Assembly: GCF_037042905.1 (NCBI RefSeq) | Contig: NC_087250.1 | Span: 24,120,001-24,184,000 of the forward strand | Length of the DNA stretch: 64,000 nt | DNA from: Lytechinus pictus | Taxonomy: Eukaryota | Direction of reading: 5' to 3' | Part shown: positions 24,404-59,229 of the stretch, piece by piece | Layout: every line of letters begins with the position of its first letter | Position numbering within the stretch: position 1 is the stretch's first letter | The notes under the pieces: generated by a model | What the model was told of the DNA's origin: nothing | The model's database searches: none | Seen by the model: the letters and a program-made list of their open reading frames with translations, nothing else | Translations under genes and position numbers: made by a program

Positions 24404-25009
24404 CAGCAATGCAGACGAATATGGCGCCCTTGAGAAAGACTTCAGCAAGATATACAAAAGCTACTTACGCAAGTGGAGTGGTTTCGCACAGGACCTGATA
24501 CCTACGCTTCCCATAGAGCTCTTTGCATTCCTGGCCCACAGGGATAAGCACTTTGCAGTACTGTCATTTCTGAGATTCCGACAGGTTATACGTCTGATGC
24601 GTGTGTCACAATTTTTTGATAGATGGGAACAGGAACTTAATATCAAGTAAGTAATGAAAGATTCTGATTGTAAGATGTCTCATAAATGTAAAGTGGTCAC
24701 TTATTCTGGGTGGTGTTTTACGAGGAGTTAAATGTTACCTAGACCCCTGTTACACTGGATATCCTACCCAATACCAGTCTCAGGGCGCCCCGAGACTCGT
24801 TTTCAAAAAGTTGATCTAAATGTTTGACCCCCTATTACACCGGAATCATAACGAGTCTCGATGCCTCCCCCCCACTGAGACAGCTTTCTGTGCGTTTACA
24901 GTGACTTACCAAAGCTGTCCGAGATTAGTTGAGCAGGGCGCCAAGTGCGCGCTGTGTTTGTTTGGATAATCGTTCCAGGTGTAGCACATCAAGCGAAACT
25001 GTCTCTGAC

Positions 25010-26100
25010 CCTGTCAGACCGCAGGTCCCTATGCTAATGAGCAAAAAGGCCAGATTCATCCAAATCATCTCGTGGCTGAATCCTCCTCCTTGCAAAATCT
25101 CGTGATTCGTGAGATTTTCTTTCTCTAAGAATTTACCTGTTTTAACCTCAAGTTAAATGAAATATTATTGCACCATCAGATAGAGTAAAAGTTACTCTTT
25201 CATATTGGTCATTTATTTTGTATACAATATTTTGTTAAATTAGTAAAATTTTTGGCCTGAAATTGTGCCTCAAAACTGAATTTTCTTCCTCTGTTTTCTT
25301 TTGCAAATTGTGCAAAACTTTTTATTTTGAGCCGCAATGATATCTATATCACCATAAAGCTGAACTTCTGTACTTTCTCACAATGCCACTCTTGATATGC
25401 AGCACCTTTTAATCGCGTCAAGATCACACTTTTCCCACCAAGGTACAAGACGAGATTTCTGAAATTTTGTACTTGCATGAAATCCAGAGTTCTGATTGGC
25501 TGGATAAGGTTCACAGAACAACAGGCGCGGGGTATTTGAGGAGATTACCACATGGGAAGTGTGACCTTCCCACGAACCCAAACACTGGAACCGTTGGAAT
25601 TTGCCATTGTGTGGTCTTTTTTAATTACCAATCAGAGTGCAGTATACTTGTTTTCAAGCTGCTTTATGTACTTGGCAAATGAAAAGTGTGATCTTGACCC
25701 GATTAAACCAATTCTTATTTTGAAACCTATATCATTTCAAAGCATACATATTCAGCTTTATCATGATATAAAAATCATTTGGGCTCAAACAAAAATAAAG
25801 TGTGAAAATAGCAGCTTTTGTCAGGTGAGAATATTTATTTTGTAGCATATTTTAGATCAAAATTTTAACCTATATTACAAAATCCTTGAATAAATCCAAA
25901 CACATGACCTGAAAGAATGATTCTTCTTCTTTACAATGGTACCAAATTCATGAAATTCGATGCATAATTAGAGCAGCAATGACCGAATGAAAAGAGGTGT
26001 TTTGGTCCGCATCAAGCTCATTAAATATGCAAAACATATAAAGTCATGAATATCACTTGGATGAAAGAAGCCACTTTATTGGGACCTGCAGTCTGACTGG
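25010..26100. mobile_element. About 1.09-kb foldback-type non-autonomous DNA transposon, only in copy 2
   Basis: TIR (C)CTGTCAGACCGCAGGTCCC / GGGACCTGCAGTCTGACTG(G). The empty site tctgaccagact near 4650 gives a TSD of AC (2 bp, CACTA/EnSpm-like) or GACC (4 bp). Long internal inverted repeats. Confidence 0.8.
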
Positions 26101-29100
26101 ACCAGGCTCGGGCAGGTTTGTGTTTACACCAAATCAAAAGCAGTCTTGGGGCGCCCCGAGACCGGTCTCGGAACACACCGCAAGGTGGTCCGAGATAGGT
26201 TTGCTGAGAAGGGGTCTTGGGTAGGTTTTTGCGTTTACACCGGATGAGAAACCTGCCCAAGACTGGTCTCAGGGCACGCCAAGACTACATAGGAAATCCG
26301 GTGTAACAGAGGTCTTACAGTCGTACACGTTCACACCAACGCGTACATGCTATTTAATGCTTAATTTTATTGATGGATATGCAGAAGTGACCATCCTGTG
26401 CGCATGATCTGGCCAATGCGATGATGTTATATACCACATGCAACTAAAAGTAAAGAGGGACTCTAATCTTGAATCTTTTTGAAACACCACCCGGTTGTGT
26501 CTAGTCCCAGTAATGGATAACCCTCTTAACCGTCACTGTTAGTGAGTCTTCAGACCTATACACTAATTAGAAATACAAACAAAAAGTTGGTTTTAAAACA
26601 AGTCTGACATATGCTCCAAATTGTAATGCCAACTTTAGTTTCAGTATATTGGTCGATTGAGTTGTATATAGTTGGTTATGTAATTGTTGTCTCTTGATTA
26701 TCTTTTTCATTTCAGTATCCTGAAAGTGAGATTAACCAAGTTCTTTGTTTTACTGCTGATCATCATTCATCTGTTTGCTAGCATCTGGTACACCATAGCA
26801 TGTCCTCTTGGTGTTTGCAAAGAAGGCTCATGGGCTACTAAGATGGGTAAGTTGTCCATCCTCCGTTTCTTCTTTCTTGTTCTCTCTTTTTTATTGATAT
26901 TCTGTTATCTTTTCTTCACTTTTCTATTGCAACCTTTCTTCTCTGTCAATAATAATCTCTTTTCTATTTTCTTCCATGCACTTTGTTCTTCATTTTTGTC
27001 TCGCCTGCATAGCGTAGCGACTATAGGCGCCGTTATCTTAAGTTTTTGAAATGTCAACATTACTTAGAAAGTATATGGACCTAGTTCATAAAACCCAAAC
27101 AAGGGTAATGGTGTATTATTGAAGATCCTTCCTGAGTTTCAGGTCACATGACCAAGGTCAAATGTCAGTTAGTGTCAACAAACTTTGACCATGTTGGGGG
27201 TTTAGTGGAATTGTCATCATAACTTTAAAAAATTTTGGATCTAGTTCATGAAACTTGAACATAAGAGCAATTAAGTATTCCTGAATACCCTGTGCGAGTT
27301 TCAGGTTACATGACCAAGGTCAAAGGTCATTTAAGGTAAACAAACTTTGATAATGTTGGGGGTATTTATGGAATCGGCATCATAAGCGTATGGATCTACA
27401 CATGTAATTCATGAAACATAGACATAAGGGTAATCTGCAAGTATGTTTTGCACCCGTCTTAGGTAACATGATCGTGGTCAAAGGTCATTTTGGCTCAATG
27501 GACATACTTATCTCATTATCAAATGAGTGTTCTCTTTTGTGAATGATCGTTCAATAGCCGTTTTCAAAGTCTGCACTACTGCTATATCGAATCACGTAAT
27601 GCAGGCGAGACTGCAGAGGCGTTCCACTTGTTCTCTTTCTCGTCATTCCACTCATTCCTATTCGCTTACCCAATTCACTTATTTCATGCATTTGCTTTCT
27701 CTCGTCAAACATTCCTTGCAGTGCTTCGCCTTTTCTCCCTTTTCAGAGTGTTTTCTTTATGTCCCCTATCTTCTCATCTATTTCTTTCACATGGGTTAAG
27801 GTTGAGGATCCATGACATTTGCTTAGGCGGCAATGCTCTGCTGTAAATTGCACACACTATATGGAATGACCAACTTCAACCCTGGATTTAACTCTATATC
27901 CTATCCTGAACCTAACCCTTTACCTTGCTAATATAAAACTCTATTGCAACCCTTCCTCTAACCCTATATCTTAGATGAAATAAAGCAAGGAGCAATTGTC
28001 GCCAGAGCAAATGTTGTGTCACCATGGTTGACTTACCATTGTTCAGTTTTTCCTTTTTTATACATACATGTAAAGGGAGCATTTATTTATAAAATGTTGC
28101 CAGTCTTTTGTGAAAGAAGTGAATATAGTGACTTAACACTAGTGAATCTGAAATATACTGTTTCCATTTTCCTTAATTGATTTAAAGACCCACATCGTGC
28201 CGAACTCGGCCCATGTGAGGTGAATGTGTAGACAGTAGACAGAAATTCCTTCAATGCTCCAGCAACCGATCAAGGTGGTTGTGCTAAAGCCAAAGTAATA
28301 ATAACACCATGTTAAGCAGGGCCCGCTGGGGGAAACAGTTTTCAGAACTGAAGTGTCTACCCTTGGTAAAATCTGAAGTTATTAGTAGTAGTACATGTAG
28401 TAGTAGTACTAGTCCATGTTCTGTAAAGATCCTTACAAAAAATGACATGAAAACAGTTGCCCAACAGTTGCTATATAGCTCACAACTACCATTTATCGTC
28501 AATATTTGACAGGTTACAGAGGGAATGAACCATACATCTTCTATCGTTACTGCGATACTATCTACTGGGCTGTGGCTACTTTGACATCAACGGGGTATGG
28601 TGATATACATGTGTACAGTGTTCCTGAGCTAAGTAAGTTTAGATTTCAACAATGTCAAATGTAGAGCGAGCAGTCTTGTTCCCATACATGATACTAATTT
28701 CATTTGGTTAGGTGTTATCTTTCTCAGTCCCACAAGAAAATATTTTGACTTAATAGGTTTTATAAAGAATCCAGAATCCATTTGGTCAGCGTACTACCCA
28801 CATTTTGTAATATGAAGAGAAAGATCTTCAGGAAAGTGAAAAACGATGGCTACAGTAGTGCTGTTAGATGCTTCATAGTTTCAATAAATAGCCAGAAAAT
28901 TAGTCTAACAATCAGGAGAGTGATTGCCCCCCCCCCATTTGTATGTAGAAGAATGTCTGAACTTCAATATGTTCTAGATTTTTAAAACCTCTACATAATA
29001 GGTTTACGACCTTTTCCATCTTTCACATTGCATCTTCTATTTCGTGTTTGTTTCTAGTATTTGCAAGTATGGTGATGGTGTTTGGAAAGCTACTCTTCGG

Positions 29101-32100
29101 TTGGGTGCTCGGAAACATCGCCTCCACCCTCGCAAACGAAGAGTCGGGACGAGTCAGCTATGAAGAGAGACTTGCAGCGGTGAAGGTACGTAGGGCATTC
29201 TCACAATATTCACTCCTCTATCCTATTCTCTGTGCGTGATGAGTCTGCTTCAGGAATATTGATATTTATCAGCGATTTTCACTGCCATATGTTATAAGCT
29301 ACTCCAAATCCTTGCATCTGATTAGCTGAGATCAAATCCATCAAACTCTTCATGAAACACTCCCTGTATATATAAGGTCTTTTGTGTGGTGAAAATTAAA
29401 GACCCAGACCGGACCCAAAAATGAAAATCACAAATCACTATATACCAATCGAAAGTTTATAGACTACTAAATACAGCAATGTAAGCTTTATGCATTTTCG
29501 CCGCTTAACAGCTGAGTATTTTGCTTAAGAACAGCTACAATTATCAGGCTTAGAAAACAGGCTTTATTGTGCTTTTCACCGGCCTCGAGACCGTGACGTC
29601 ACGTTGTGTGAGAAGCGTTGTGATTCCATAGGTTTGTACACAGAAAAACTGGGTGATTTTTTTGCTTTCCAGATTACGCATTTCATTTTCTTCACTTCTA
29701 TCACAGAGTGATATCACATATATTTGTTCCTGCACGCTTGAATTTATGAAATCTACAGTTTTGGACTAGTTTTTGCCATATTTTATTTCCTGCTTATATG
29801 GTGCAGATTTCAATTCTATCTGCATTCACATTATGTGTAACAACTTTTCCTGACATAGCAATTTAGGCCCAATATGAGCCAAACAAAAAAATCACACAAA
29901 AAAGTAGTGAATAGTTGTAAGTTTTCCTCCATTTGAACACTGAATAATTGTGACTGCCATTTTCATCTGAAAATGGAAAAAAAATTGAATTCATAGTCTG
30001 GAAATCAGAAAAATCACCCAGTTTTTTTGTACACAAACCTATGGAATCACGACCCTCCATACACAACATGACGTCATCATTTTCATGCGACGTTGGGGTG
30101 CTCAATCGAAACAAGTTCAGGAGGAGCAATTTCTTTGATTTCTATTTAATCTTTTAAGTAATGGAAGGAGATATATGTAATATTTTTGTTATATTTCTAT
30201 TCTATGAATCATTACCTTTCAGTTGATGTATGGTTGTTTTTACCCCGGTCAGGGTCTTTATTTATTTAAAAAATCTTTTATTAAAAAAACATATACTGGT
30301 ACAGCATAATAAATTACTATTGTTGGTACTAAAGTGTAGAAGAATAAGCAGCAGAATTTCTTGGTTGTAGGCTGATAATGAGACTTCATTGTATCCTCTT
30401 TTGCTTTTTATTTTGTGAAATGGGATGGAACCAAAGATTTTTTAGTACTGTATCATTATTAACAAATATCTGTGCTAATAAGTGTTCAAATTACATGTAA
30501 TAAAAATCTAAAATAATTCCATTTTAGATTTCTTGCCAAGCATTTCAGCACCACAAAGTTCGCTCAACTCTCTCAAAATATTGCATTTTATATCATTCTG
30601 TCACAGGACCAAATGAAAGACATGCGATTGAACAGCAAGTTGAGGAATCGAGTTATTAGCTATTTTGATTATCTATGGGCACGTAACAAGTAAGTCAGAG
30701 TTTGGTATTTGATTGCCAGCTAAAGCGATATATATCTCTTTTTGATATATTGCTGTTTTCCCTCTCTTCATCATGTAGAGAATATGGTAATACATTTTCC
30801 TTGTAACCCTCTAGAAAATAAAATGAATTTCACCATGTAATGCTACGGTCACTATAACAAACACCTTATGAATGATTTCATACCATGTATCGGTCCCGGT
30901 ATTAGTATGTATAAAAAAGTTTGTACGGCAATATTAAAGGTATTTGTGACCATCACATTGTGCTCATATTGATAACTCTTGAAATTTATTGGACCATCCT
31001 ACCAAATAATTTGTAGTTGCAGGAATTGCATTGTATCATTACAGTTAAAGGACAAGACCACCTCAACAAAAAATTGATTTGATTTAAAATAGAAAAATCC
31101 AACAAGCATAACACTGAAAATTTTTTCAAAATCGGATGTAAAATAAGAAAGTTATGACATTTTGAAGTTTCGCATAATTTCATTAAACAGTTATATGCAC
31201 ATCCTGGTTGGTATGCAAATAAGGAGACTGATGACGTCATCCACTCACTATTTCTTTTGTATTTTATTATATGAAATATGAAATATTTCAATTTTCTCCT
31301 CTTTGTCAAGTGAAACAATGAATAATTCCTCCCTGAATATGTGGAATTAGCATTGTTTAAAATAAAACTATATGGTTCAGTCAAGTTGGTCCTTATTGTC
31401 AAATCTGTAAAAATGAAATATTGTATAATTCAAACAATAAAAAACAAGAGATAGTGAGTGAGGGACATCATCGACTGTCTTATTTGCATGTCACTGAGTT
31501 GTGCATATAACTGTTTTGTCAAAACTAATCAAAACTTTAAACTGTCATAACTTTCTTATTTTTATATCCGATTTTGATGAAATTTTCAGTGTTATGCTAG
31601 TTTGATTTTTCTCCATTTATTCAAATCAACATTTTCCTGGGGTGAACTTCTTTAATGTTGTATTTCATGAAACAGGTTAAAGGATAGAAAGCAGAATGTT
31701 GCTTCTTCATCTGAGTGATTCAAGGAATACAAAAAGAATTTGAACAAACCTTAGAAATACAAATCCAGCCAGTTTATAAAGCAAATAATGCACATTTTAT
31801 ATTTGTACTGTCGCAGGCATCCCGGGTTTTCACTATGTAATTTGTCGTGCATTGTATTTACCCACTAACACATACCTGTGCATTATTTGCATTATATGAG
31901 CAAAAGTTGTAAATCATACACTGAGTTTTCTCTTTTTCATTCTTCTTGTTCAGGGGTATAGATCAAAGTATCCTCTTCAGAGATGCCCCATTCTGTCTGC
32001 AGACTGATCTAGGTCTCGATGTTGCTGGCGAACATCTACAGAAGGTCAGTAGACAGTAGTCTTTCAGTGTTTCAGTTGGGTACCTTCACAAAGAAGCCAT

Positions 32101-32253
32101 GTCCAAAACAGAAGTCTGAGCACCTTCTTTCATGCAGGAATCTCGCAATTGCCCTTTCATCTCTAATCATCACACTTCATCACAAAGGTGCTTTGTGTGT
32201 TTTATACTGACTTTCTCACATTTCCTATTGTTTTTTTTTTTGTGGTGAATGTG

Positions 32254-33492
32254 CCCACTGGGCAATTTGTTACCGATTACCAATTTTACCGGTTATTACC
32301 GGTAATATCACCCGGAAATTTGAGTAACACCAAATATTACCGTTATTACCATGTTATTACCGAAATTATAATTCCTGTTGATACCTGTTACTGTTATCAC
32401 CCTGATGAAACCTACATTTACCTAGTTACAACAGGGTGATGAGGGGTAATAAGGGTAATGTTGAATGACTTTGATTGGTTATAACATTGCAAACTTTAGT
32501 AATAAGAGCAATCTTACAGCAATCCCAGCGAAATTTTCAAAGTCCAAAAAATTACTGTTATCACCCTGATGAAACCAACATTTTACCCAGTTACAAACAG
32601 GTTGATAAGGGGTAATGGGTAATGTTGAAACGCTTCCATTCCCAGACAGCAAAGTATCTGGATCACATACGGTTCTTATCTGGGATATCTGGGTCCCATA
32701 TGGGCCCACATGGAACCCAGATGAAAACATATACTTGAACCCACATGGTGCCCAGATAGGACTCAGATGGAAACGAGACCTCCAACCCATGCGGAACCCA
32801 TTAATATTGGGTAAATGGAGTAATATCAGATGGTAATATCAGGAAAATGCTGGGAATATTAGTTACTCATGAATATTCATTACTACAATAAATGGCCAAA
32901 ATTTTAGCTAATATAGCTGTAATAATTAATGTGTTTATGTTTATGCAATTATTCCACCCAGAAAATTTTCAGAAAAATGTGTAGTTTATATATCATATTA
33001 GTCATAATCATGACATTAATTTTAGAAAAATGTTTTAGGGTTGAATAATTGTTAACCATAATTTGTCAAGTGTTGTAAACTCGCTCAATATATAGAAGTA
33101 AATGACAGGGTTTGGTGGATAGGTGTAGGATAGGATTAGGATTAGGATGTAGGATTTTAGGATAGGATAAGATGATATGGCTTAGAGTATGGAGTTGTAA
33201 ACATGTGCTTCAATGACCCTAATGACACTAATTGTTTTTTTAATGAGCCGACATTAATTGGGTAATATTGGGTAAACAGAGTAATATGAGGTGGTGATAT
33301 CATTAAAATGCTGGAAATATCGGTTACATCATACTGGGTAATATTGGGTAAATGGAGTAATATCGGGTCCGGGTAATAACGGGGAAAGATTGGTCTACTA
33401 TTTCCCCGTTACTACCCACTGGTGTTACCGTGGTAATAACTACGTTATTACCTGTTACAACCCGGGTAATATCGGGTAAAATGCCCAGTGGG
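32254..33492. mobile_element. CACTA/EnSpm-like non-autonomous element, 1239 bp, only in copy 2; includes a CCCAGACAGCA-type fragment at about 32641-32800
   Basis: TIR CCCACTGGGCA / TGCCCAGTGGG; 2-bp TSD TG; empty site gaatgtgata at 11441-11450; many subterminal ttacc/ggtaa repeats. Confidence 0.82.
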
Positions 33493-35595
33493 TGATACTT
33501 AGAGATGGGAAGACAATAAGGAATTCCTGCATGAAAAACTTCAGTAATTCTTTGCAGAGACTACCTGGTTTGGAAAGGATAATGGTTACCAATATCCTAT
33601 CATCTTGGCTATCATACTCATTACTCGCCCAATATATTTAATTTCATGCTTCATTCTTCTTGCTAGGTGTTCATGATGGTATTCACAACCTTCTACTTTC
33701 TGTTAATATATTTAATGATACGTTGGGATTTATTGGACTTGGTCATGTGAATATTTATATCCTTGCAGGTGGCTCTTTTCCGAGAGGCTGACGAAGCATT
33801 CCTACGTGCTCTTTCCCTCATGCTCAAACCTGTTCTCTTTATGCCTAATGATCTCATCGTAAGACAGGGAGATGTTGGAGATGAAATGTACTTCATCTGT
33901 CGAGGAGTGGTATGATTCCTTATTTCTTTTATCCTCTCATTTGGAAAAAAATACACAACTTGGCATTCGAGGAAGCATGTTAACTTCACTTGTATTTGAT
34001 GCCATAACGAGAAAATGTATCATGTTAGTAATATCTGAGATGGGAGTCTCATTAAAATTTATATCAAATTTCCATGGAAAAAGGGATCCTTGCCCCGAAC
34101 CAAACCCATACAAATATCCCTCAAAAGCAAATTATAATTGTTTATTATGTAAATACAACCACAAATTACATCAGAAGAAAGCACATGATAATGGACACTA
34201 AAAGCTTAACCCTATCTTAACTGGGCTATATTCGGACCAGGGGGGGGGGGGGGGGTCAATTTGACCCCCCCTCAGATCTCGGTTGCTGATTGCGCAATCC
34301 CCGCGAAAATTTGCATGCGCGTAGAGCCGGGTTTAAACTACAAGAGTGTATAGAAAAATGTTCCAAAAAAAAATTTATTAATTAATTATTCAAATAAGCA
34401 TATGAAATTTGCCATGAATTTGTTTTTTTGTGTATGTATTTGCCTTTAACTCAATTTATATAGCTAGCAGAATGCTAATTTTTGGTGGGAGTATCAACTA
34501 TTACATTTCTAACAAATATCTACAAAAAAATAGCAAAAATATAATTAATTTCTTATGTATTTTATTTTAATTTTAATTCTTATGTATTTCTTTGTTTTTT
34601 CAAACCTTTGTTTTATATTGTTTTTCCCGATGAACTTTGTCGAGGAACCTTTTGCGATCATAAATAACATAAAATAGATCCATTTAAACCAACAAAACTA
34701 AAAATAATCATACATTTATGATTTTTGGTAACACAATTTGCATTGACTTTTTACATGGAATCATGTTTTTGAGCAATATCTGGTCTGACATGCACTTACA
34801 AAACGTTGCATAATTTTGGAACCGCATACCCGGGCATCGAAAATTTGGTCTCAAAAGATGCGCAAGACGGCGTAGTGACAAAATTTGTTGAGGATGGGGG
34901 GTCAAATTGACCCCCAAGTTTAATAAGGGTTAATGCATGATACATTTTTAGTGTCAACTCCCATCCCTAAGCTACATTCTTGATTTTAAATTCAGGTAGG
35001 TTTGTTTAATTCGTAGCACATGATGTTAATTTTGATCTGATTTGTAGCATTCAAGCATAATTTACCCATAAAGACCACTGCTACAAAAATTTGTTAAAGT
35101 CAAACTACCATAAACACTTTTATGGAATCCCCCTTGTTGGCCCTCCCACCAAAATTAGTGTAAATATGGATTTTTAATCCATTTTGTTAGATGGTCCATT
35201 TCAGGACAAAAAATTGCCCATGAAAAAATACATGGTGTACCGTGAAACCACTACACTCTTGTTCTTTGCCATGGAAACCTTCAAAAATTGCCCTATTTTG
35301 TTCTCTTGTCACAAAATTAAGCTTGTCCCATATCTCATGTCTTTTTTTTATCCATCTATAATTGTTTTAGGTTGAAGAGCTAGAAGTTAACAGCCATTCA
35401 CGTGTTGCCCGAGTTTTAGAGTCTGGCGAATTCCTGGATGACATTAACCTCCTTTACGACGTACCACGGCGAACTTCATACAGAGGCCGAACCCACGTTG
35501 ATGTTCTCTCATTGTCGGTGCACGATTTGAAATCAGTGCTGGAGCAGTATCCGCAGGTCGAAGCACAGATTCGTCGGATTGGAAAAGAGCTTTAC

Positions 35596-36270
35596 TATGG
35601 GGCGCCAAGTGTCCGCCAGTGAATTAGGTCCAAATCACGGCATTCCGTACACAAAATGTGTTTTTATTCAGACGAAAATCATTTCGTCATGACGCTTTTT
35701 TATTTCGTACACAAAATTTATTTTTTGTCACACAAAATCAATTTCGTCTCGAAATGCACGAAATCAATTTCGTCTAGACGAAATGTAATTGCGTCCACAA
35801 AGTTTATTTGGCGTGCCATACGAAATGAATTTTTTTCAAACGAAATGGCGCACCAAATGTCCGATGGTAAATTCCGTCCAATTCACGCCATTCCGTACAC
35901 AAAATGTGTTTTTGTTCATATGAAAATCATTTCGTCATGACGCAGTTTTATTTCGTATACGAAATTATTTTTTGTCACACAAAATCAATTTTCGTCGAGA
36001 CTAAATGTAATTGCGTCCACAAAATTTATTTCGTTGCGATGCGAAAATCTATTCCGTCGACGAAATCATTTTGTGTCAAAACCACAAAAAAATTTCGTTG
36101 ACGAAATGATTTTGTGTCAAAACACAAAAAAATTTCGTCGACGAAATGATTTTGTGTCAAAACACAAAAAAATTTCGTCGACGAAATGATTTTGTGTCAA
36201 AAGACAAAAAAATTTCGTCGACGAAATGATTTTGTGTTTTGAGTCTTTTTGACATAAAATCATTTCGTCT
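35596..36270 (+). repeat. Subterminal repeat block: about 248-bp direct duplication of the terminus plus 40-bp tandem repeats; mirror at about 58525-59160
   Basis: cattccgtacacaaaatgtg at 35641 and 35889; acgaaatgat at 36101, 36141, 36181 and 36221; palindromic core TTTCGTCGACGAAA. Confidence 0.9.
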
Positions 36271-37388
36271 CCTCTGTCTCGAAGGGGACATAAGAAGGTC
36301 GCTGATTGGCTGCACCTTGCTCAAGCTGTTTTCGCTCCGGGACGATCACACTTTTTCACAGCTCAGATTGGCATGTTGGTGAACTTATTAGCTTAGATTT
36401 CACGTTATTCATGCCTACATGAGCTGCATACAACTGCTCTAATCGGTAGGATGTGGACGGACATTGCATTCGTAAGTTCAGCTATGTTTTCGACTTCAAA
36501 ATTACGTTGAAAAAAAAATGGGAATTCGTTAGTCGTTACCAAACTTGCATTTGCAAAAAGCTGTGTAACAATACTAGTCCCGTGTATTTAAGTTTATGTA
36601 CTGTAGTCAGCAGACCATTGGGGGGGGGGGGGTTTGTCTTTTCTGCACACCTAAAAAGTAAAATGGTTATGAATTATACAGGTTGAAGATATTTAGGCCT
36701 TGATCTTAATAAATAATGTAAAATTCATTCCGAGCAAAATGCTGAAAATTTCATTGAAATTGGATGACAACAAAAGTTATTGATGCCTGGCCGTACATGC
36801 CGTATGAAACTCTAACGTTAGGCTACTCCACTCAGTGACTCACGCGTATTGCGAGGTTAGTATTAGTATACTAACCTCGCACCATTAACCACGTTTGGCA
36901 ATGGATTTCTAACTAGTGGGTCACGCGTGCTGTGATCCCACTTCTGGTGTCCACAACACACAACCATCGCCTGCTGTACTAGTATAGTTGTGGTAGCCCT
37001 GGCCCCACTCATTACTAGTTCGAGGTTAGTGGCTACATATAGTTGCTACAGTACATGTATAGATCTATAGTACTAACCTCGTACACCGAACTGCATTTGG
37101 CCCTGGATTTCTGTGAAGTTGGCAAACATCGCTTCATTACAATACAGAATTAATATTTGCCGAAACTCCTCGCTACTCACCGGGGCGCTTTGCGGTGAGT
37201 AGCCATAATACAAAAAGTCAATAGTATATTTTTAATTAAATCAAAATCATATTTAAAAAAAAAGCAAATTTGATTACTTTGGAGTTTGGACTAGAAAGTG
37301 ACTTCGCGTGTCTCTTCTTTTTACGCAAATAAAAGGAAGCCAGATGGTGGCGCTAATAAATTTCACAGCCTTGATTCAGGCTCGCTTC

Positions 37389-39649
37389 AAATGCAGCTCC
37401 TCGGTAATTATGCCCCCGCAGACAAAGTCCGGAGGGGGCATTAAGCGTTGCCCCTGTCCGTTGATTCGCCCGCCCCCCCCACTTGGTTTCCGCGCAATAA
37501 ATCGAAATATATTTCGATTTATATATATTGATTAAAAAAATTTTGGTGTGTAGGTATGTGACACCATAGTACAGGCTAACTTTGAATTCGGAGTCTGCAG
37601 GTCCAAGGTCACAGCTCATGAAATATCCGAGTTGGTTTCCACATGATGACTTATGAAATATTCTACATATTTAAACGAATTTGAGTGTGTAGGTAGATGA
37701 CACCAAAATACAGGTTAAGTTCGAATTCGTAGTCGGCAGGTCAAAGGTCACGGCTCATTAAATATGCAATTTAGTTTCCACATGATTACTTTAAAAATAT
37801 TCTACATATTTAAACAAATTTGAGTGTGTAGGTAGATGATACCAATACAGGCTAAGTTCGAATTCGGAGTATGCAGGTCAAAGATCACAGCTCCTTAAAG
37901 ATATCTTATGAAATATGCAACAGATTTTTAAAAAATTTGGGTGTGTAGGTAGATGATGATGATGATGCACAGCATTTTTACAGCGGCGTAACAGGGTTCG
38001 GTGGCCAGGGGGGGGGGGGGGGCAAGAGCCAAAAATTTCCCGGTCATATCATGGTATGAAGAGGCGTAATGGTGTAATAAGGCGACTATTTTGAGAAATG
38101 CAGCTCCTTGGTAATTATGCCCCCGCAGACAAAGCCTGGAGGGGGCATTAAGCGTTGCCCCTGTCCGTTGATTCGCCCGCCCCCCCCACTTGGTTTCCGT
38201 GCAATAAATCGAAATATATTTTGATTTATATATATTGATTAAAAAAAATTTTGGTGTGTAGGTATGTGACACCATAGTACAGGCTAACTTTGAATTCGGA
38301 GTCTGCAGGTCCAAGGTCACAGCTCATGAAATATCCGACTTGGTTTCCACATGATGACTTATGAAATATTCTACATATTTAAACGAATTTGAGTGTGTAG
38401 GTAGATGACACCAAAATACAGGTTAAGTTCGAATTCGTAGTCGGCAGGTCAAAGGTCACGGCTCATTAAATATGCAATTTAGTTTCCACATGATTACTTT
38501 AAAAATATTCTACATATTTAAACAAATTTGAGTGTGTAGGTAGATGATACCAATACAGGCTAAGTTCGAATTCGGAGTATGCAGGTCAAAGATCACAGCT
38601 CCTTAAAGATATCTTATGAAATATGCAACAGATTTTAAAAAAATGTGGGTGTGTAGGTAGATGATGATGATGATGCACTGCATTTTTACAGCGGCGTAAC
38701 AGGGTTCGGTGGCCAGGGGGGGGGGGGGGGGGCAAGAGCCTAAAATTTCCCGGTCATATCATGGTATGAATAGGCGTAATGGTGTAATAAGGCGACTATT
38801 TTGAGAAATGCAGCTCCTTGGTAATTATGCCCCCGCAGACAAAGTCCGGAGGGGGCATTAAGCGTTGCCCCTGTCCGTTGATTCGCCCGCCCCCCCACTT
38901 GGTTTTCGCGCAATAAATCGAAATATATTTCGATTTATATATATTGATTAAAAAAAAAATTGGTGTGTAGGTACATGACACCATAGTACAGGCTAACTTT
39001 GAATTTGGAGTCTGCAGGTCCAAGGTCACAGCTCATGAAATATCCGAGTTGGTTTTCGCATGATGACTTATGAAATATTCAACAGATTTATAAAAATTAT
39101 GGTGTGTAGGTAGATGACACCAAATACAGGCTAAGTTCGGAGTCGGCAGGTCAAAGGTCACGGCTCATTAAATATGCAATTTAGTTTCCGCATGATTACT
39201 TATGAAATATTCTAAATATTTAAACGAATTTGAGTGTGTAGGTAGATGACACCAAAATACAGGTTAAGTTCGAATTCGTAGTCGGTAGGTCAAAGGTCAC
39301 GGCTCATTAAATATGCGATTTAGTTTCCGCATGATTACTTTAAAAATATTCTACATATCTAAACAAATTTGAGTGTGTAGGTAGATGATACCAATACAGG
39401 CTAAGTTCGAATTCGGAGTATGCAGGTCAAAGATCACAGCTCCTTAAAGATATCTTATGAAATATTCAACAGATTTTTAAAAAATTTGGGTGTGTAGGTA
39501 GATGATGATGTTGATGATGCACAGCATTTTTACAGCGGCGTAACAGGGTTCGGTGGCCAGGGGGGGGGGGAGGGCAAGAGCCAAAAATTTCCCGGTCATA
39601 TCATGGTATGAATAGGCGTAATGGTGTAGTAAGGCGACTATTTTGAGAA
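37389..39649 (+). repeat. Three tandem copies of a 707-844-bp unit with about 120-bp subrepeats; single copy in the right arm at about 56402-57244
   Basis: Unit start aaatgcagctcc at 37389, 38096 and 38806. Confidence 0.9.
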
Positions 39650-42599
39650 GGCCAGAACTTATCTTTAAAAAAAGTTGCGAGCGAGCGAAGCGAGCGAGCA
39701 ATTTTTTTTACCTTTTTAATACAAAAATCCAATTTTGTGATAGATTTTGACATGATATCCAGATAATAAATTTATTTAATTCTTCTCTCTTTAGATTCCT
39801 TTTTTGTCACGGTGGTCTGTACGCGCCACTGTGAAGAGGATTATTTGCGGCAGTAGCGTGAAGAGTAAAAAACAAAACAAAAAAACAACGAGGGGCGCAG
39901 TATAGAACATGTGCCAAAAGGCTGCTTTATATATATATATATATATATATAAGTCCTGAGCGAGCGAAGCGAGCGAGAAAAAAAATCAACTTTTCATGAG
40001 AATATAACTTTGAGCTATTTTTTAACATATTCAGTAATTAAAATCATATCCTACAATACTTTTCCAACAAAAAAGGAGGTAATTCCTCCTTTTTTTTTAA
40101 ATATTCCATTTTCAGTATCCAAATAGAGATGAAAATTATCCTATTTGGGAGGGTAACCATGGACCTGGGCCTTTACTGTGTATTTACAGTAAACTCTTAC
40201 TAAATGAACAAATATATAAAAAATTTGGTTTACCCTACATAATAATCCTGGGCTACTTTTAGATTGCATAGCCCGGGGGGGGGGGGAGGCTTTTTGGTCC
40301 CCCTCTTCAGATCTCCGTCGATCGCAACGAAAACCAATACACACGTCACCATCAATGTAATCTGCAAGCATGGAGCTAAGGGTGTATCGCTGATTTTACA
40401 GAATTTAAATTTATTTTTAATAAATTAATAATGCTAATTTATGCCTAAATATAGAATTCTCTGCTTTAAAGGTAAATCTCTAAATAATTCCCCAAATTCT
40501 ATGATTTCTAAACAAATGTGCTCCTGAAAAAAATGGTAAATCAAATTTCTAATCTTATGTATTTTATTGGTTTTATAATTCCATACGTATTTCTTAGTTT
40601 TGGGGCCTTATGTATTTTATTGGTTTTTTTCAATGGGATCACTTCGTGGTACTATTCCAATTATAAAAAGCAAAGATTTGATTATTTTCAACCAATCAGT
40701 GCAAGAATAATGATGCATTTGTCAATTATGACTGAAAACAGAATTTCCATTGGATTAAATATGTATACAAAATAAAATTTTTAGCAATTTTTGGTCCAAC
40801 ATAAGCTCATAAAATGTTGGGTAACTGCGTATCCGGGCGTCTCGAATTTGGTCTCAAAAGCTCTGCGAGAATTGAACGGGAAAAAAAATTGTGGTACCTC
40901 GTTTCTCATTGTGGACTTATCGTGAAAAATGTGGATAGGGGGGCTTATTAAGCCCCCCCCCCAGGGGCTAGATAGGGTTAATATATCATCATGAATATAC
41001 AAAAAAAATACATTTATTTTGTTGCAAGTCACTGGAAAAGGTTTGATTCCTAAATAAATATTATTCTTCATGTATTATCAAATATTTAATTGAAAAATTT
41101 TAAGCTATCTTTTCATTCGATGTATTAAGCGCTATATAAAAGCGGATTATTATTATTATTATTAGGTTTTATCATAATTTTACTTTTTGAAAATTATGCT
41201 ATTTTGTGACTAAGGCTACGTTTCATGTACTTTCCACCAATAGTATACGATATCAATGGATTCTAGTTAATCCTTTTGGGTAAGATTGGAACTAACTCTG
41301 TGTTTGGTAGATAAAGTTATATGACTAACTTGTCCAAGTGTTGAGAAACGGGCCCCTGCTGAGTACATGTAGGCCTAGAGTTTTTATGCCCCCACAGACG
41401 AAGCCCAGAGGGGGCATTAAGCATTGCCCCTGTCCGTCCCCCCCCCCCCACTTGGGTTTCCGCGCAATAACTCGAAAAATATTTAATGGATTTAAAAAAA
41501 ATTTTGGTGTGTAGGTAGATGACCACAAAATACAGGCTAAGTTCGAATTCGGAGTCCGCAGGTCAAAGGTCACATCTCATTATATATGCAAGTCGGTTCA
41601 AAGGTCTGAATTTGTTAATTATATATATATGCATATTGGTTTCTGTATGATATTAAGTTCAATCATATTGAATGGATTTCTGATCGCGTTAAGCAGGGGC
41701 ATCTGTGTCCTTTGGACACGTCAAATTTTCTTAATTATGTGTAATTGATTTTATGACATGTGTTTACATTTGCTGCAGATTCCCATTCAGCCGTTGGACT
41801 GAACCGGTACTGTAACACAGTATGGATGGTCAATATGAAGCGAGCTTCATTGAATTCTTCCAAGAGCTTTGTACTCCGTTTTGCTCATTTTGAAGATGGT
41901 AGCTTTGACAGGACTGGGCAAGTGACACGTCTTAGACAGGATGCTGTCCCAACCATATTTGATTTCCTGCCTCGTCTTCAGAAGGTAGAGTAGATCTATA
42001 TCATACATGTGTTCTAAAGAAATATTTTCTCTGTATTATCTACCTTTGGTTTGATAGAACATTGCTTTAAATATTCCATTTTCAGTAGCCAAATAGAGAT
42101 GAAAATTATCCTATTTGGGAGGCTAACCATGGACCTGGGCCTTTACTGTGTATTTACAGTAAACTCTTACTAAATGAACAAATATATTAAAAATTTGGTT
42201 TACCCTACATAATAATCCTGGGCTACTTTTAGATTGCATAGCCCGGGGGGGGGGGGGGGGGGGAGGCTTTTTGGTCCCCCTCTTCAGATCTCCGTCGATC
42301 GCAACGAAAACCAATACACACGTCACCATCAATGTAATCTGCAAGCATGGAGCTAAGGGTGTATCGCTGATTTTACAGAATTTAAATTTATTTTTAATAA
42401 ATTAATAATGCTAATTTATGCCTAAATATAGAATTCTCTGCTTTAAAGGTAAATCTCTAAATAATTCCCCAAATTCTATGATTTCTAAACAAATGTGCTC
42501 CTGAAAAAAATGGTAAATCAAATTTCTAATCTTATGTATTGGTTCTATAATTCCATACGTATTTCTTAGTTTTGGGGCCTTATGTATTTTATTGGTTTT

Positions 42600-43582
42600 T
42601 GTCTCGCCTGCATAGCAGAGCGAGACTATAGGCGCCGCTTTTCCGACGGCGGCGGCGGCGTCAACATCAAATCTTAACCTAAGGTTAAGTTTTTGAAATG
42701 ACATCATAACTTAGAAAGTGTATGGATCTAGTCCATGAAACTTGGACATAAGGTTAATCAAGTATTAGTGAACATCCTGCCTGAGTTTCAGGTCACATGA
42801 CCAAGGTCAAAGGTCATTTAGGGTCAATGAACTTTTGCCAAGTTGGGGGTATTTGTTGAATTACCATCATAACTTTGAAAATTTATGGATTTAGTTCATG
42901 AAACTTGGACATTAGGTTAATCAAGTACCACTGAATATCCTGTGCGAGTTTCAGGTCACATGACCATGGTGAATGGTCATTTAAGGTCAATGAACTTTGG
43001 CCGTGTTGGGGGTATATGTTAAATTACCATCCTAGCTCTGAAAGTTTATGGATCTAGTTCATAAAACTTGGACATAAGAGTAATCAAGTATCACTGAACA
43101 TCCTGTACGAGTTTCAGGTCACATGACCATGGTCAAAGGTCATTAAAGGTCAATGAACTTTGGCCGTGTTGGGGGTATTTGTTGAATTACCATCCTAACT
43201 ATGAAAGTTTATGGATCTAGTTCATAACACTTGGGATATAAGAGTAATCAAGCATCACTGAACATCCCCTGTGAGTTTCAGGTCACAAAACCAAGTCAAA
43301 GGTCAGTTAAGGTCAATAAACTTAGGCCATGTTGGGGTAATTGTTGAAGTGCCATCATAACTTTGAAAGTTTATGGATAGAGTGAATGAAATGTGGACAT
43401 GGGTGTAGTTGACAGTCTTAAGTCTCCGTTCAAATGTCATTTATGGTCAATGAACGTGGTATTATGTCATTATATGAATGATGTTTTTGTGAATGATTAT
43501 TTTATAGTAGTTTTCAAAGTTAGCACTGCTGCTATATTAAATTGCGTAATGCAGGCGAGACTGCCAGAGGCGTTCCACTTGT
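42600..43582 (+). mobile_element. Helentron/Helitron2-like element, same family as 5535-6171, left arm only
   Basis: TGTCTCGCCTGC...GCAGGCGAGAC...CACTTGT inserted in a T-run with no TSD; empty site tggtttttttcaatg at 40621; about 5 internal 128-bp repeats. Confidence 0.75.
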
Positions 43583-46500
43583 TTTTCAATGAGATCACTT
43601 CGTGGTACTATTCCAATTATAAAAAGCAAAGATTTTATTATTTTCAACCAATCAGTGCAAGAATAATGATGCCTCTGTCAATTATGACTGAAAATAGAAT
43701 TTCCATTGGATTAAATATGTATACAAAATAATATTTTTGAGCAGATATTATGGTATTGTAGATAATGCCATGGGTAACGCGCGTGCCAATTTTCGTCGCG
43801 ATTGCGAGATCAACGGCCGAGATCATAAGGGGGGCTGAATCAGCCCCCCCCCCCGTCTTCTTAGGCGTCGAAATAGCCCAGTCTATTTAGGGTTAAAGAT
43901 AAATCCCTAAATAATTCCCCAAATTCTATGATTTCTAAACAAATGTGCTCCTGAAGAAATGGTAAATCAAATTTCTACTTTTATGTATTTTATTGGTTCT
44001 ATAATTCCATACGTATTTCTTTGTTTTGGGGCCTTATGTATTTTATAGTTTTTTTTCAATGGGATCACTTCGTGGCACTATTCCAATTACAAAAAGCAAG
44101 ATTTGATTATTTCCAACCAATTAGTGCAAGAATAATGATGCATTTGTCAATTATGACTGAAAATAGAATTTCCATTGGATTAAATATGTATACAAAATAA
44201 TATTTTTGAGCAATTTTCGGTCCAACATGAACTCATAAAATGTTGCGTAACTGCGTATCTGGGCGTCTCGAATTTTGTCTAAAAGCTCTGCGAGAATTGA
44301 ACGAAAAAAAAAATTGTGGTACCTCGTTTCTCATTGTGGACTTATCGTGAAAAATGTGGATGGGGGGGGGGGGGGCTTATTAAGCTTATTAAGCCCCCCC
44401 CCCCGGGGCTAGATAGGGTTAATATATCATCATGAATATTAAAAAAAAAACATTTATTTTGTTGCAAGTCAATGGAAAAGGTTTGATTCCTAAATAAATA
44501 TTATTCTTCATGTATTATCGAATATTTAATTGAAAAATTTAAAGCTATCTTTTCATTCTTCTATCTGTTTTTGTTCAATATTTCTTATATGTTTCTTTTT
44601 TTTAATTCATTCATCTCGTACAGAGTTCATCCAAGCCAAGGAATTCCCCGAAAGAAAGACGTTTTGATTCAGCAAACAACCTCCCAGATACTGCAAAGTC
44701 TTCAGCACCTTCATTTCTCGAGGACCACTCCTACTCAATATCAGAAAGTCCAAGAGGGGTAAAGTGGAAGATAACAGCAATAATGGACTATTAAAAACTT
44801 GGAGAAGAGGCTGAAACCACACAGCAGAAGTCCCGCCGTGTACATTACTTGCTCTTAAGTTTGGACAAACATGACTCGCAAAACTTTACAACAAATAATT
44901 TACGCTATGTGCATTCTGATTATTTAAAATAGCTCAATGAAAAAGTTTACCACTGGGCATGTAACAAAAGTGCATTCATTAAATTTGAACGTGTTGCAAA
45001 AATGATGTCTTACAGTATATTCATTCTGACTTAGAATGTCAGAAGAGAAAAAAGTTTGTGAAAAGTAGGAATGACAGCAAGCTGACAGAAGAATAGAACA
45101 GGATAGAACAAGGCGATAGTTATGAATGAGCTGTTGGATAGAGACAAAAAGATGAATTAAGAATGGGGGTGATAGAGAAAGAGAGACGGGTGTTGGGGGA
45201 GCCTGTGATCAATGCCTGAGAAAGCGAAGATTACCATAATTTTTTTAAGGATTTGAACAGTCAGGAAAAATCTGGGTTTTTTTTTCTGTTGGTATTTCTC
45301 AAAATACTTGTATGTTTTATGTAACGAAACGGGTATAATCCTTCGGAAGTTTCACTCACACAGAAAATATTAACTAAACAAAAGAAAAAAAGCCAAATAA
45401 TTCACTGATTTTCAATTGTTCAGTAACTCTCATATCCAAAGTGCCCCCCCCATCATTTCAATGTATTGGAGAGAGAGTATGAACGGGACATGGCTGTCTG
45501 CAGAAAAAAAAAATACGGGGGGGGGGCAAAAATTTTTGGGGATATGTGCAAGGGAGCGAAGCGACAGCAGAAAATTATTTTGCAATATATGCGAGAGAGC
45601 GAAATGACAGAGAAGAAAAATGCAAGAGACAAGAGATTTGGGGAATATGTGAGAGGGAGCGAAGTGACCAAGCAGAAGAAATGTAGAGGACATAAAATTG
45701 TTGGGGTATGTGAGGGAGCAAAGCAACCGATAAAAAAAGCAGGTCAAAATATTTTTTGTGAATGATTATTTTATAGTAGTTTTCAAAGTTAGCACTGCTG
45801 CTATATTAAATTGCGTAATGCAGGCGAGACTGCCAGAGGCGTTCCACTTGTTTTTCAATGAGATCACTTCGTGGTACTATTCCAATTATAAAAAGCAAAG
45901 ATTTGATTATTTTCAACCAATCAGTGCAAGAATAATGATGCCTCTGTCAATTATGACTGAAAATAGAATTTCCATTGGATTAAATATGTATACAAAATAA
46001 TATTTTGGAGCAGATTTTGATATTATGGTATTGTAGATAATGCCATGGGTAACGCGCGTGCCAATTTTCGTCTCGATTGCGAGATCAACGGCCGAGATCA
46101 TAAGGGGGGCTGAATCAGCCCCCCCCCCCCCGAAATGAGCGAAATGACAGAGAAGAAAAATGCAAGGGACAAGAGATTTGGGGAATATGTGAAAGGGAGC
46201 GAAGTGACCAAGCAGAAGAAATGTAGAGGACATAAAATTGTTGGGGTATGTGAGGGAGCAAAGCAACCGATAAAAAAAGCAGGTCAAAATATTTTCGAAT
46301 ATGTGTGAGGAAGCGACTCGTTCACTCTTGAGCAGTAGGGACTTGTTTAAAAATAGCTTAAGAAATATGCGTTTTCTAAGCATGGTAAACACATATTGTA
46401 GGCCTACGGTAGAATTTAGGTGCTCTAAGAGTTAGATTCTGAATGAGCTGCATTTGCTGGTAAGACATGCGCAGAGGATCTTTGTCTTTCATCCATTTTC

Positions 46501-47080
46501 CACACTTTTCTTTTGATTTCAGTTTCCAGGCAGAAAGGCCCACCCTCCTGTGGAAGCCAATGGGGCAGGGGATTATATGCTTAAAATGCCAATTTTTCTG
46601 GTTGGAATATCAAACATTATCCTGAGCTTCGCGCTCATTTTAAAAATTATGTATAAACTATTAATGCTGATAAATACATTTAGATGTGCAGTGCTCTCTT
46701 GTAAAGCAGTTTTGTACTGAAGAGGCTACCCTGGGTAAATAAAACAGAATAAATGAATAAAGAAATAAATAAAAATGATGTTTCTAATCTCAGACTTTCT
46801 TATGCCCCTCGAAAGCTCACCCCTTCTTTGTTTCTCTTTTGATATCTAAAGTTCCGGTTTTTCCCTTTCTATCGTGCACTATTCTAAGCCCCAGCCCCAC
46901 TGGCTTCCACAGGAAGGGGGGGGGGGGGGGCTTCCCCTGAAAACTGAAATCCAACAAAAGAAATTTGAAAAATAAAAATGGATAAGAGACACAGATCCTT
47001 GCCGCATGTCTTACCAGCCAATACAGTTCATTCAGAATTTGACTCGTAAAACACCTAAATTCTACCGTAGGCCTATAATA

Positions 47081-48491
47081 GGTTTATTGCCATTTCGTCT
47101 ACTGCCATTTTGTCCACTCACCAAATGGTATGTCATTTCATCTACCATCAGTTGTTCCTTTTCCACATCTTCCAATTACCATTTTGTCCAATAGCTAGTT
47201 CGTCTAATAACCAATTTGTCTACTTTCATTTGGTCTAATTGTATTTTTGGCCAATTTGTCCAATAGCCACTTTGTCCATTTTCATTATGTCTATTACCAT
47301 TTAGTCCAATAGCCAATTGGTCTAAGGGCAAATGGCCACTGACCACTTAGTCTACTTACATTTTGTCTATGTTCCATTTTGTCCAACTGCAGTTGATCCA
47401 CTGTCACTTAGTCTAAACCCATTTCATCTAACAATCATTTGGTCTAATCATCAATGGGTCCAATTGCCATCCCGGTCAATATTCGTTTCGTCTACAATCA
47501 AATAGGAATAGTCTCCTACTAGCAGTCCTTCTAGTTTGGTGCCTGTGTATTGCTACCTCGACTCCTGTTGCTCTTGTGATTTGTTATTAATTTACACCTG
47601 TCGTTTGATTAATCTTTTATTAGTGTTTTTTTAAGCTCCATTGTAATACATTTTATGTTTTTATGTAATGTTCTCCCCATCCTTTCCCACTTTTCTCTCT
47701 TTTTAATTTTTTTTGTACCGTCCAAGGCTGTTATCGTTATTATTATAGTACATTTCTTGTTTATTAGTACTATCATTAATTACTATTATTACAATTATTA
47801 TCATTGTTATATGATGAGTGATGATTATCATTTTTAGGTGTGCATTTGTAAAAAAAAAGAAATGAGGGTAAATTCCAAATCAAAGGACCCTATTTCAATT
47901 TTATCAATTTTAACCACTCCAATTCCCCCTTTTGTGTGCGTGATGTGGTAGAGAGAGCGGGGGGGGGGGGGGGGGGGGTAGGAGGCTGCATGCTGTACCG
48001 CATCATTCCATTCCTGATAGCAGGCCTAGTTATATATTTTTTTATCTTCATGAATTTCAAGGTATATTTAAGAAGTCATTTCGTCCCCCCCCGGATGATG
48101 CATTATATTTGTATTAGACAACATGGCTATTGGACCAATTGGCTATTAGACTAAATGACTATTGGACGATTTGAGAATTGGACGAACTGGGCGATTTGGT
48201 TGTTAGACAAACTGATTATTGGACCTAATGGGTGGTGGACGAAATGATAGACGAAATGACAATTATCCGGTAGATAATTTGGATATTGGACCAACTGATA
48301 TTAGCCAACATGGCTTGGACTAAATGAACATTGGACGAACTGATTAATGGAGATGGCATTAGCCTTAATAGAATTAGACTAAATGGGTGGTAAACGAAAT
48401 TGCTATTGGACGAAATGGCATTTATAGACAAAATGAAGGTAGACCATGTGGTGAGTGGACTGTATGGCAGTAGACGAATTGGCAATTTACC
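47081..48491. mobile_element. About 1.4-kb long-TIR element (MULE/foldback-like) near the palindrome centre; terminus fragment also at about 22585-22617
   Basis: GGTTTATTGCCATTTCGTCTACTGCCAT / ATGGCAGTAGACGAATTGGCAATTTACC; arrays of short ttggtctaat-like repeats in mirror orientation; degenerate flanks ctataata/ttaaaata. Confidence 0.7.
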
Positions 48492-49758
48492 TTAAAATAT
48501 GGGTTTACCATTCTTAGAAAACGCATGTTTCCTAAAACAAGTCCCTACCGCTCGGGAGTGAATGTGTCGCTCCCTCGCACATATTCCAAAATATTTTGAC
48601 TGACCCTGGGTAAATAAAATAAACAATTACAAAAACGAAAATGTTGTTTTTAATCTGAGACTTTTTAATGCCCCTCGAAAGTTCACCTGCTTTCTCACTC
48701 TCCCCCTCTCTATCTTTGTTTTTATTCATTTTCATTTTACAATTCTTTCTTTCTCTTTTGATATCTATAAAGTTCAGATTCACCCTCTCTAACTTGCACT
48801 ATTCCAAGCCCCCGCCCCATTGGTATCCACAGGAATGGGGGGAGGAGGGGCTTACCCCCTGGAAAATAAATTCAAACAAAAGAAAAATGTGAAAATAAAA
48901 ATGGATAAAGACAAATAATCCTCTGCGCATGTCTAACCAGCCAATACAGTTCATTCAGAATTTAACTCTTACAACACCTAAATTCTACCATATTATCAGT
49001 TTACCATGATTATAGAAAACGCATATTTCCTATGCCATTTTTAAACAAGTCCCTATCGCTCGGGAGTGAACGTGTCGCGCACCAGCACAAATTCGAAAAA
49101 TATTTTGATTGACCTGCTTTCTGGTTTTTTTTATCGGATGCTTTGCTCCCTCACACATACCACAATTTTTGTCCCTCTTTCCTTTTACTTCTGCTTGGTC
49201 ACTTTGCTCCCTCTCACATATTCTCGAAATATTTTGGCCCCTGCATTTGTTCTTCTCGTCACTTTGCTCTCTCACATATATCCCCAGAATAATTTTTCTG
49301 CTCGGTCGCTTCGCTCCCTTGAACATATCCTAAAAATGTTTTGCTCCCCCTGCATTTTTTTCTGCAGACAGCCAATCCATTTCTCATCCAACCTCTCTCT
49401 CTCTCCAATACCTTGAAATGAGGGGGGGGGGGGGTACTTTTGATATGAGAGTGTCTGAACAGTTGAAAATAAGTAAAATATAATTTGGCTTTTTTGTTTG
49501 TTTAGTTAATATTTTCTGAATGAGTGTATCTTACAAAAGAATTATACCCATTTCATTACATACAACATACACATATTTTGAGAAATACCAACAGAAAAAA
49601 CATGTACTATTCATTACTGTCCAAATCCTCAAAAAAAAATTATGGTAATGTTCGCTTTCTCAGGCATTCATCAAAGGCTCCCCCACACCTGTCTCTCTTT
49701 CTCTATCACCCTCAATCTCAATTCATCTTTTTGTCTCTATCCAACAGCTCATTAGTAA

Positions 49759-50358
49759 AGGTCAAGTTTACCCAAGAAAATTGTTGGTTCAGTTAAATTG
49801 AGAAAAATCAAACTAGCATAACGCTGAAAATTTCATCAAAATGGGATGTAAACTAAGAAAGTTATGGCATTTTAAATTTTCACTTATTTTTCACAAAACA
49901 AAAATATTTACAACTCAGTGACATGCAAATGAGACAGTCGATAATGTCCCTCACTCACTGTTTATTTTGTTTTTTATTGTTTGAATTATACAATATTTCA
50001 TTTTTTACAGATTTTACCATAAGGACAAACTTTACTGAACCAAAAAAGTATTGAATAATGCTAATTCCACATGATCAGGGAGGAATAAAATTTTGTTTAA
50101 CATGACAAGGAGAAAATTAGAATATACCTTATTCTATATATCAAATGAAATAGTGAGTGGATGACGTCATCAGTCTCCTCATTTGCATACTGACTGTGTA
50201 CAGAATGTGCATATAACTCTTTTGTAAAATTTAGCAAAATTTTTAAATGTCATAACTTTCTTATTTTACATCCGATTTTTTATCAAATTTTCAGTGTTAT
50301 GCTTGTTGGATTTTTCTCTTTTTATTCATATCAACAATTTTTGGGGTGGACTTGTCCT
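49759..50358. mobile_element. Kolobok-like MITE, same family as 10247-10852, right arm only
   Basis: AGGTCAAGTTTACCC...GGGGTGGACTTGTCCT termini; absent at the mirror site near 45120. Confidence 0.7.
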
Positions 50359-59166: not shown

Positions 59167-59229
59167 GGTGACTACGCCAACAGTGTCAATGCCCAGGAGA
59201 TCTTCCCTGCCAAGCAAACTGAAGTCTAA
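59167..59229 (+). pseudogene. CNGK: Displaced remainder of the duplicate terminal exon (GDYANSVNAQEIFPAKQTEV*)
   Basis: Identical to 13589-13651; resumes immediately after the right TSD. Confidence 0.92.

Follow-up and report, generated by a model that had tools for sequence, protein, structure and literature searches.

Element Boundaries and Palindromic Architecture

A 64,000-bp stretch of the Lytechinus pictus genome (RefSeq assembly GCF_037042905.1, contig NC_087250.1, positions 24,120,001–24,184,000 of the forward strand; hereafter, the window) was analyzed, in which a host exon at 35371–35595 (plus strand), encoding part of a cyclic-nucleotide-binding domain (match below the Pfam cut-off), is interrupted 20 codons upstream of its stop by a palindromic (foldback) DNA transposon of 23,565 bp at 35596–59160. 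The span of the element was established by comparison with an empty site. It starts with TATGG (35596) and ends with CCATA (59160), and both of its arms carry a decayed fragment of a P/THAP9-type transposon gene, which is most probably a passenger of a non-autonomous IS3EU-type element.

The paralogous exon at 13364–13648, which lacks the insertion, contains the sequence CTTTAC once (13583–13588), and the same hexamer is present on both flanks of the element (35590–35595 and 59161–59166). Since the empty paralogue holds a single CTTTAC, the target site duplication (TSD) is fixed at exactly 6 bp, a length that comes from one insertion. Twenty-eight boundary pairs were compatible with the empty site; none of them gave a TSD longer than 6 bp, and matching ends (20 of 20 bases) were obtained from the pair 35596/59160 only. 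The termini and the 6-bp TSD that an earlier note had read from this DNA were thereby confirmed, as was its statement that the flanks permit no symmetric reading of 7–8 bp. In contigs X3 and X12, which come from other runs, the alignment begins exactly at 59161, and the 247 further nucleotides, lying off this stretch, resemble an empty site. No loose read ends at the terminus were found among those listed, and no further insertion sites were recovered from the reads, whose depths are not equivalent to copy numbers; a search for the terminus in viral and metagenome contigs gave no match.

The element begins with TATGGGGCGCC, the reverse complement of which closes the right end. The terminal inverted repeat (TIR) is longer than 30 bp: the first 30 nt form a perfect inverted repeat, followed by an identity of 98–100% across the outer 1.6 kb of the arms. 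Further in, the identity is mostly 92–99% where the arms can be aligned, up to positions 45113 and 50370, and the arms differ by insertions present in one of them only and by one stretch that has been replaced. The center of the element (45125–49753) consists of older inverted and direct repeats that are 65–83% alike, and no transposase was found in it. A 14-nt end motif, allowing at most two mismatches, occurs exactly twice in the window (mean expected by chance, 0.29; two occurrences were reached in 4 of 100 shuffles). The left terminus with its subterminal repeat block (35596–36269, plus strand) comprises the 30-nt TIR, TTTCGTC/GACGAAA motifs, and 40-bp tandem units at 36051–36237, and the right block (58460–59160, minus strand) is its mirrored counterpart. 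The tandem units are present in 4.7 and 3.7 copies, and 30 of the 40 copies of TTTCGTC/GACGAAA in the window are located in the two terminal 700-nt stretches. These blocks probably represent a transposase-binding region.

The P-Type Fragment and the Search for a Transposase

The P-type fragment consists of three exons in each arm. In the left arm (plus strand), exon 1 (36411–36471) is interrupted by stops at codons 4 and 13; exon 2 (41779–41984) encodes the second half of the THAP domain, with a frameshift near its start and Arg at the position of the third zinc-binding Cys; and exon 3 (44624–44870) encodes the linker, the DHxY motif, and the coiled coil in a frame broken by further frameshifts. 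In the right arm (minus strand), exon 1 (58322–58382) is identical to the left copy, both stops included; exon 2 (52640–52849) is frameshifted and also has Arg for the third Cys; and the frame of exon 3 (50614–50862) is open to a stop at 50553–50551. A Pfam match to THAP was obtained in exon 2 of both arms. The stop at codon 4 occupies the position of the first zinc-binding Cys in the full-length P locus L019 and in intact relatives; with the first Cys replaced by a stop and the third by Arg, the C2CH zinc ligands are intact in neither arm. The exon 1 stops, the exon 2 frameshift, and the Cys-to-Arg replacement are thus lesions common to the two arms, which differ from each other by several percent in exons 2 and 3.

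The P homology ends at approximately 44870 and 50614, after the coiled coil and before the helix-turn-helix (HTH) and catalytic domains. No P-type HTH, RNase H, or GTP-binding domain, nor any other P domain past the coiled coil, was found in the element; the stretch between the two exon 3 copies gave no tblastx match to 10 full-length P loci, and tblastn of 147 relatives against the window returned the known exons only, plus one marginal match outside the element. In one RNA run, of which approximately 6% was read, exon 2 had a depth of 0 and exons 1 and 3 stayed below 1, which is weak evidence. Judged by its sequence, the THAP cargo is evidently a dead, truncated 5′ fragment of a P transposon and not the transposase of the element.

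The P/THAP9-like label given to this gene in the earlier note was right. Among the DNA-level relatives (80 metagenome loci kept of 98 confirmed), 10 encode all five P domains; when the window is set against these full-length loci, its three exons prove collinear with L038, and intron 2 is found at the same codon as in L019, L033, L038, and L042. Measured from the element ends, the ATG lies at 815 bp on the left and at 778 bp on the right, directly after the subterminal repeats; the distance of about 815 bp, which had been given for each end, therefore holds for the left one. Since the element is a palindrome, the THAP gene at both ends is one mirrored sequence and does not amount to two observations. 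It had also been argued that this is the place where an element's own gene would sit. The position was correctly described, but the argument is weak: the ATG of intact P relatives lies 109–144 nt inside the CA end (eight loci with both motif and start codon placed), so a P element landing just inside the subterminal repeats would bring its ATG to about this point. A CA dinucleotide is found where the end of such a nested P element would be expected, at 36289, that is, 20 nt past the subterminal repeats and 122 nt upstream of the ATG, and the segment 36289–36410 (plus strand) is suggestive of a remnant of the P 5′ end and leader. The match of a leader motif at −41 requires a relaxation introduced after the data had been seen. 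Near 46790, the 36289 region seemed to have an inner inverted partner, but its score of 30 was also reached by the highest of 399 background windows, and the pairing was discarded.

The longest 150 of 272 stop-free frames (at least 40 residues each) were compared with Pfam, which gave two THAP matches only. The catalytic core motifs of IS3EU gave one match with one mismatch, mirrored in both arms and at chance level. No transposase being detectable, the element is not an autonomous member of IS3EU, and its assignment as a non-autonomous element of this type is by its ends only. Complete IS3EU families have TA...TA termini and usually a 6-bp TSD, and they form one lineage with GingerRoot (PMC10045372); fungal IS3EU elements end in TAYGG...CCRTA and carry accessory genes of the TET/JBP and alpha-kinase types (PMC12730594). 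The signature given for IS3EU in the earlier note (TAY...RTA, 6 bp) agrees with this. Its statement that P and Galileo duplicate longer target sites also has support in print, where TSDs are 8 bp for P, 7 bp for 1360 and Galileo, and 8–9 bp for BuT5 (PMC3698922, PMC4168063), and in zebrafish Pdre2 the TIRs start with CA and the TSD measures 8 bp (PMC10983969).

Relatives of the Fragment and the Surrounding Locus

A phmmer search against 1.84 billion representatives gave 353 matches; the best 150 of these included 147 new proteins, which, together with the query copy, made up the 148 proteins scanned for domains, and the counts that follow refer to this set. THAP was found in 141 proteins, the P-element HTH in 20, the N-terminal part of the P RNase H in 6, the GTP-binding insertion in 4, and HTH_Tnp_4 in 1, with integrase families in none. 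The P HTH was present in 16 of the 27 relatives having at least 120 residues past the DHxY motif. In a tree of 53 selected rows, the urchin sequences grouped with 12 P-HTH proteins (Shimodaira–Hasegawa-like approximate likelihood ratio test, SH-aLRT, 92), with poor resolution. The top match, P0038 (1052 aa), combines an intact THAP domain with many tandem linker–DHxY–coiled-coil repeats, and it is to these repeats that it owes its rank.

The proteins closest to the cargo belong to L. variegatus and to L. pictus, with identities of up to 100% in the latter, and many annotated loci of these two species contain the fragment. None of the 37 Lytechinus proteins retrieved had an intact N-terminal Cys-x-Cys zinc pair, and the exon 2 frameshift recurs in the L. 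variegatus copy P0003 (single-frame alignment over 41778–41984). Two consecutive L. pictus accessions correspond to the left-arm and right-arm variants, which suggests that another palindromic copy exists in this species. In dozens of near-identical L. variegatus models (P0003, P0004, and P0011–P0034), the dead THAP fragment is preceded by other first exons and followed by a different C-terminus, which suggests a second, recently amplified carrier family. This C-terminus, which is absent from the window, had been taken by eye for an IS3-type HTH; the identification was rejected, as Pfam, the homologue search, and Atlas were all negative. Comparison of the THAP alignment with viral contigs revealed nothing.

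At the DNA level, locus L019 contains a full P gene flanked by 26-bp CA...TG inverted repeats. A 5′ motif beginning with CA, which these same loci had served to define, was found upstream of the gene in 14 of the 80 loci, and in L035–L038 one 24-mer follows four different flanks and thus marks an element boundary. TAYGG ends with a 6-bp TSD were found around the gene in none of the 80 loci; a TAYGG...CCRTA pair accompanied by a 6-bp repeat occurs once, but the gene is not between its ends and it is not part of a longer inverted repeat. It should be noted that the power of this test is limited, since most loci are short and the relatives are distant. The long inverted repeats flanking the P gene in L001 were rejected as element ends because they also occur as direct copies and hence look like a dispersed host repeat. 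Three metagenome loci of one lineage, L019 (7–6641), L038 (1171–5948), and L033 (467–4908), appear to be complete P elements; their common terminus starts with CA and has an inner ACTGGAT, and they also share the leader motif GCCATnTTG.

Over the 225 and 300 positions compared, the exonic flanks of the insertion match the empty paralogue without a single difference. As the flanks are identical, yet exons 2 and 3 of the two arms have diverged by several percent, the element most likely moved after the death of the fragment; in terms of sequence divergence, the insertion looks younger than the decay of the cargo. The exon belongs to tandem paralogous segments (4051–18422, 24404–35595, and 59161–64000) that are 91–98% alike and spaced approximately 21–22 kb apart, in which the copies of the cyclic-nucleotide-binding-domain exon at 13364 and 35371 are identical. 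These segments represent either a recent duplication or uncollapsed haplotypes.

An element of 601 bp with TTAA on both sides (52940–53540) is nested in the right arm only; it has inverted repeats, its relatives are located at 10244–10855, 31046–31649, and 49756–50361, and the joined (empty) form of its site was present in all four runs examined. Its TTAA and purine ends are reminiscent of miniature inverted-repeat transposable elements of the Kolobok or piggyBac type. A unit of approximately 709 bp with a 139-bp tandem array is present in three copies in the left arm (37389–39649) and in one in the right arm (56402–57244), and a 163-bp array at 42702–43400 has relatives outside the element. 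The left-arm sequence 40096–41118 is a copy of more internal sequence (42066–42603 and 43893–44558), opposite which the right arm has approximately 1.9 kb of different sequence (54037–55967), an internal rearrangement. At the center of the palindrome, positions 47080–48492 form an old inverted-repeat unit with arms that are 65–75% alike and a 16-bp internal repeat.

Origin of the Element and Comparison with Known Systems

The element is best explained, with a probability of approximately 0.8, as a non-autonomous foldback transposon of the IS3EU/GingerRoot type that carries a nested or captured P remnant and was moved in trans. The following order of events may be proposed. A P element would have inserted, or been copied, into an IS3EU-type element approximately 0.7 kb from one end, after which its 3′ part (HTH, catalytic core, and 3′ end) would have been lost and the remainder would have decayed. 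That half may then have been duplicated in inverted orientation, which would place the fragment at both ends, with the outer parts held near-identical by recent duplication or conversion. The unit would still have moved in trans, most likely by means of an integrase-type IS3EU transposase made elsewhere, which would bind the subterminal repeats and make a 6-bp staggered cut, and the THAP fragment would be a passenger that does not set the end chemistry. The earlier note had offered the capture of a THAP gene by an IS3EU-type element as one of two explanations; the uptake of THAP sequence by such an element is supported here, but the cargo is evidently a dead 5′ piece of P and not a host gene.

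Several observations weigh against this explanation. The assignment to IS3EU rests on five terminal bases and a TSD from one insertion, and the autonomous partner was unseen. Gene conversion between the paralogues could also give identical flanks. Within the element, neither a P 3′ end nor an inner TSD of 7–9 bp was found, and a profile constructed from the 5′ leaders of six relatives and one doubtful sequence did not recover the window leader at 36289. A search of 249 candidates for a close parent of full length gave no match (weak evidence), so the fragment's own ends are known from distant relatives only, and in these both ends are visible in one of the 10 full-length loci (L019), which has no readable TSD.

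It is conceivable, although improbable, that the P-derived THAP/coiled-coil piece is a former accessory gene of the IS3EU lineage, for example, a DNA-binding helper or repressor, that has since decayed, the IS3EU transposase still being the mover. Truncated P repressors are known in Drosophila. The fragment retains the leader, both introns, and the order of the exons, and it stops shortly after the coiled coil; it occurs at numerous annotated loci of two Lytechinus species; and accessory genes are carried by IS3EU families (TET/JBP and alpha-kinase in fungi; PMC12730594). However, the Cys-x-Cys start is intact in 0 of the 37 Lytechinus proteins, both arms are broken here, exon 2 had no RNA coverage and exons 1 and 3 had a depth below 1 in the portion of the run that was read, and a high copy number would be expected of any sequence riding a mobile element.

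That the ends derive from another or undescribed group with TA...TA termini and a 6-bp TSD, with the P fragment again as a passenger, is very unlikely. The classification consists of the end sequence and one TSD, and no transposase is linked to these ends, which would leave room for such a group; however, the other groups with a 6-bp TSD that are named in PMC6839031 have different ends, AG in Polinton and TG...CA in Ginger, and IS3EU has been annotated in another sea urchin (PMC11316814).

The second proposal of the earlier note, a THAP-transposase lineage with new end chemistry, found no positive support, and it is highly unlikely that a P/THAP9-type lineage acquired a 6-bp cut together with TATGG...CCATA ends, or took over IS3EU ends, with the element as its internal-deletion derivative: although the sole coding remnant is of P type and points inward near each end with no IS3EU transposase remnant beside it, Galileo demonstrates that long, internally repetitive arms exist in the P superfamily (PMC4168063, PMC3573991), and TSDs in this superfamily range from 7 to 9 bp (PMC3698922), the ends agree with IS3EU at all five published bases and in the TSD (PMC12730594), the CA ends of intact relatives lie 109–144 nt and not 815 nt from the ATG, among the 80 loci a TAYGG...CCRTA pair with a 6-bp repeat occurs once and leaves the gene outside, and the fragment was probably dead before this insertion. 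If it existed, such a lineage would undo the correspondence of transposase type with end sequence and TSD length that underlies the classification of DNA transposons, and it would allow changes in the cut spacing of a P transposase to be studied in a natural system.

As a passenger on an IS3EU/GingerRoot-type element, the fragment would represent a tidy but ordinary case, in which a little-studied superfamily (PMC11934779) spreads a dead piece of another transposon. Such cargo can mislead transposon classification, and the series of Lytechinus gene models annotated as "THAP domain-containing" may consist of transposon-borne pseudogene copies. The case also illustrates the insertion of a 23.6-kb near-palindrome as one unit into a coding exon. 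No description of a THAP sequence in IS3EU was found in the literature searched, most subscription papers and Repbase Reports lying outside this search.

Comparison with known systems places the element closest in its ends to IS3EU/GingerRoot, with which it shares the TAYGG...CCRTA termini, the 6-bp TSD, and an intron-containing fragment in a copy lacking the DDE transposase. In GingerRoot, 22 of 77 elements contain intron-containing gene fragments, and the DDE motif is kept in 6 of these 22; the Selaginella elements measure 3.9–12.9 kb, with TIRs of 100–150 bp (PMC6839031). In contrast, the present element has no transposase and is 23.6 kb long with mirrored arms on the kilobase scale, and its fragment comes from another transposon superfamily and not from a host gene.

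The fragment itself resembles P/THAP9-type elements (Pdre2, P, BuT5, L019, and L038) in the combination of THAP, DHxY, and coiled coil, in its three collinear exons, and in the position of the second intron. Unlike them, the element lacks the HTH, RNase H, and GTP-binding domains, and two of the three zinc-binding Cys residues are lost. Its outer ends are TA and not CA, and its TSD is 6 bp and not 7–9 bp; as a whole, it thus departs from the P superfamily in termini, in TSD, and in having no complete transposase. Galileo, with a TSD of 7 bp, has a P-type transposase of its own, and its TIRs reach approximately 1.25 kb, whereas here the TSD measures 6 bp and each arm is mirrored over approximately 9.5 kb. 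Meanwhile, the arms of Galileo are extended via inverted duplication of internal sequence and are longest in non-autonomous copies (PMC3573991), and the element shares with Galileo and other foldback transposons the very long, internally repetitive inverted arms.

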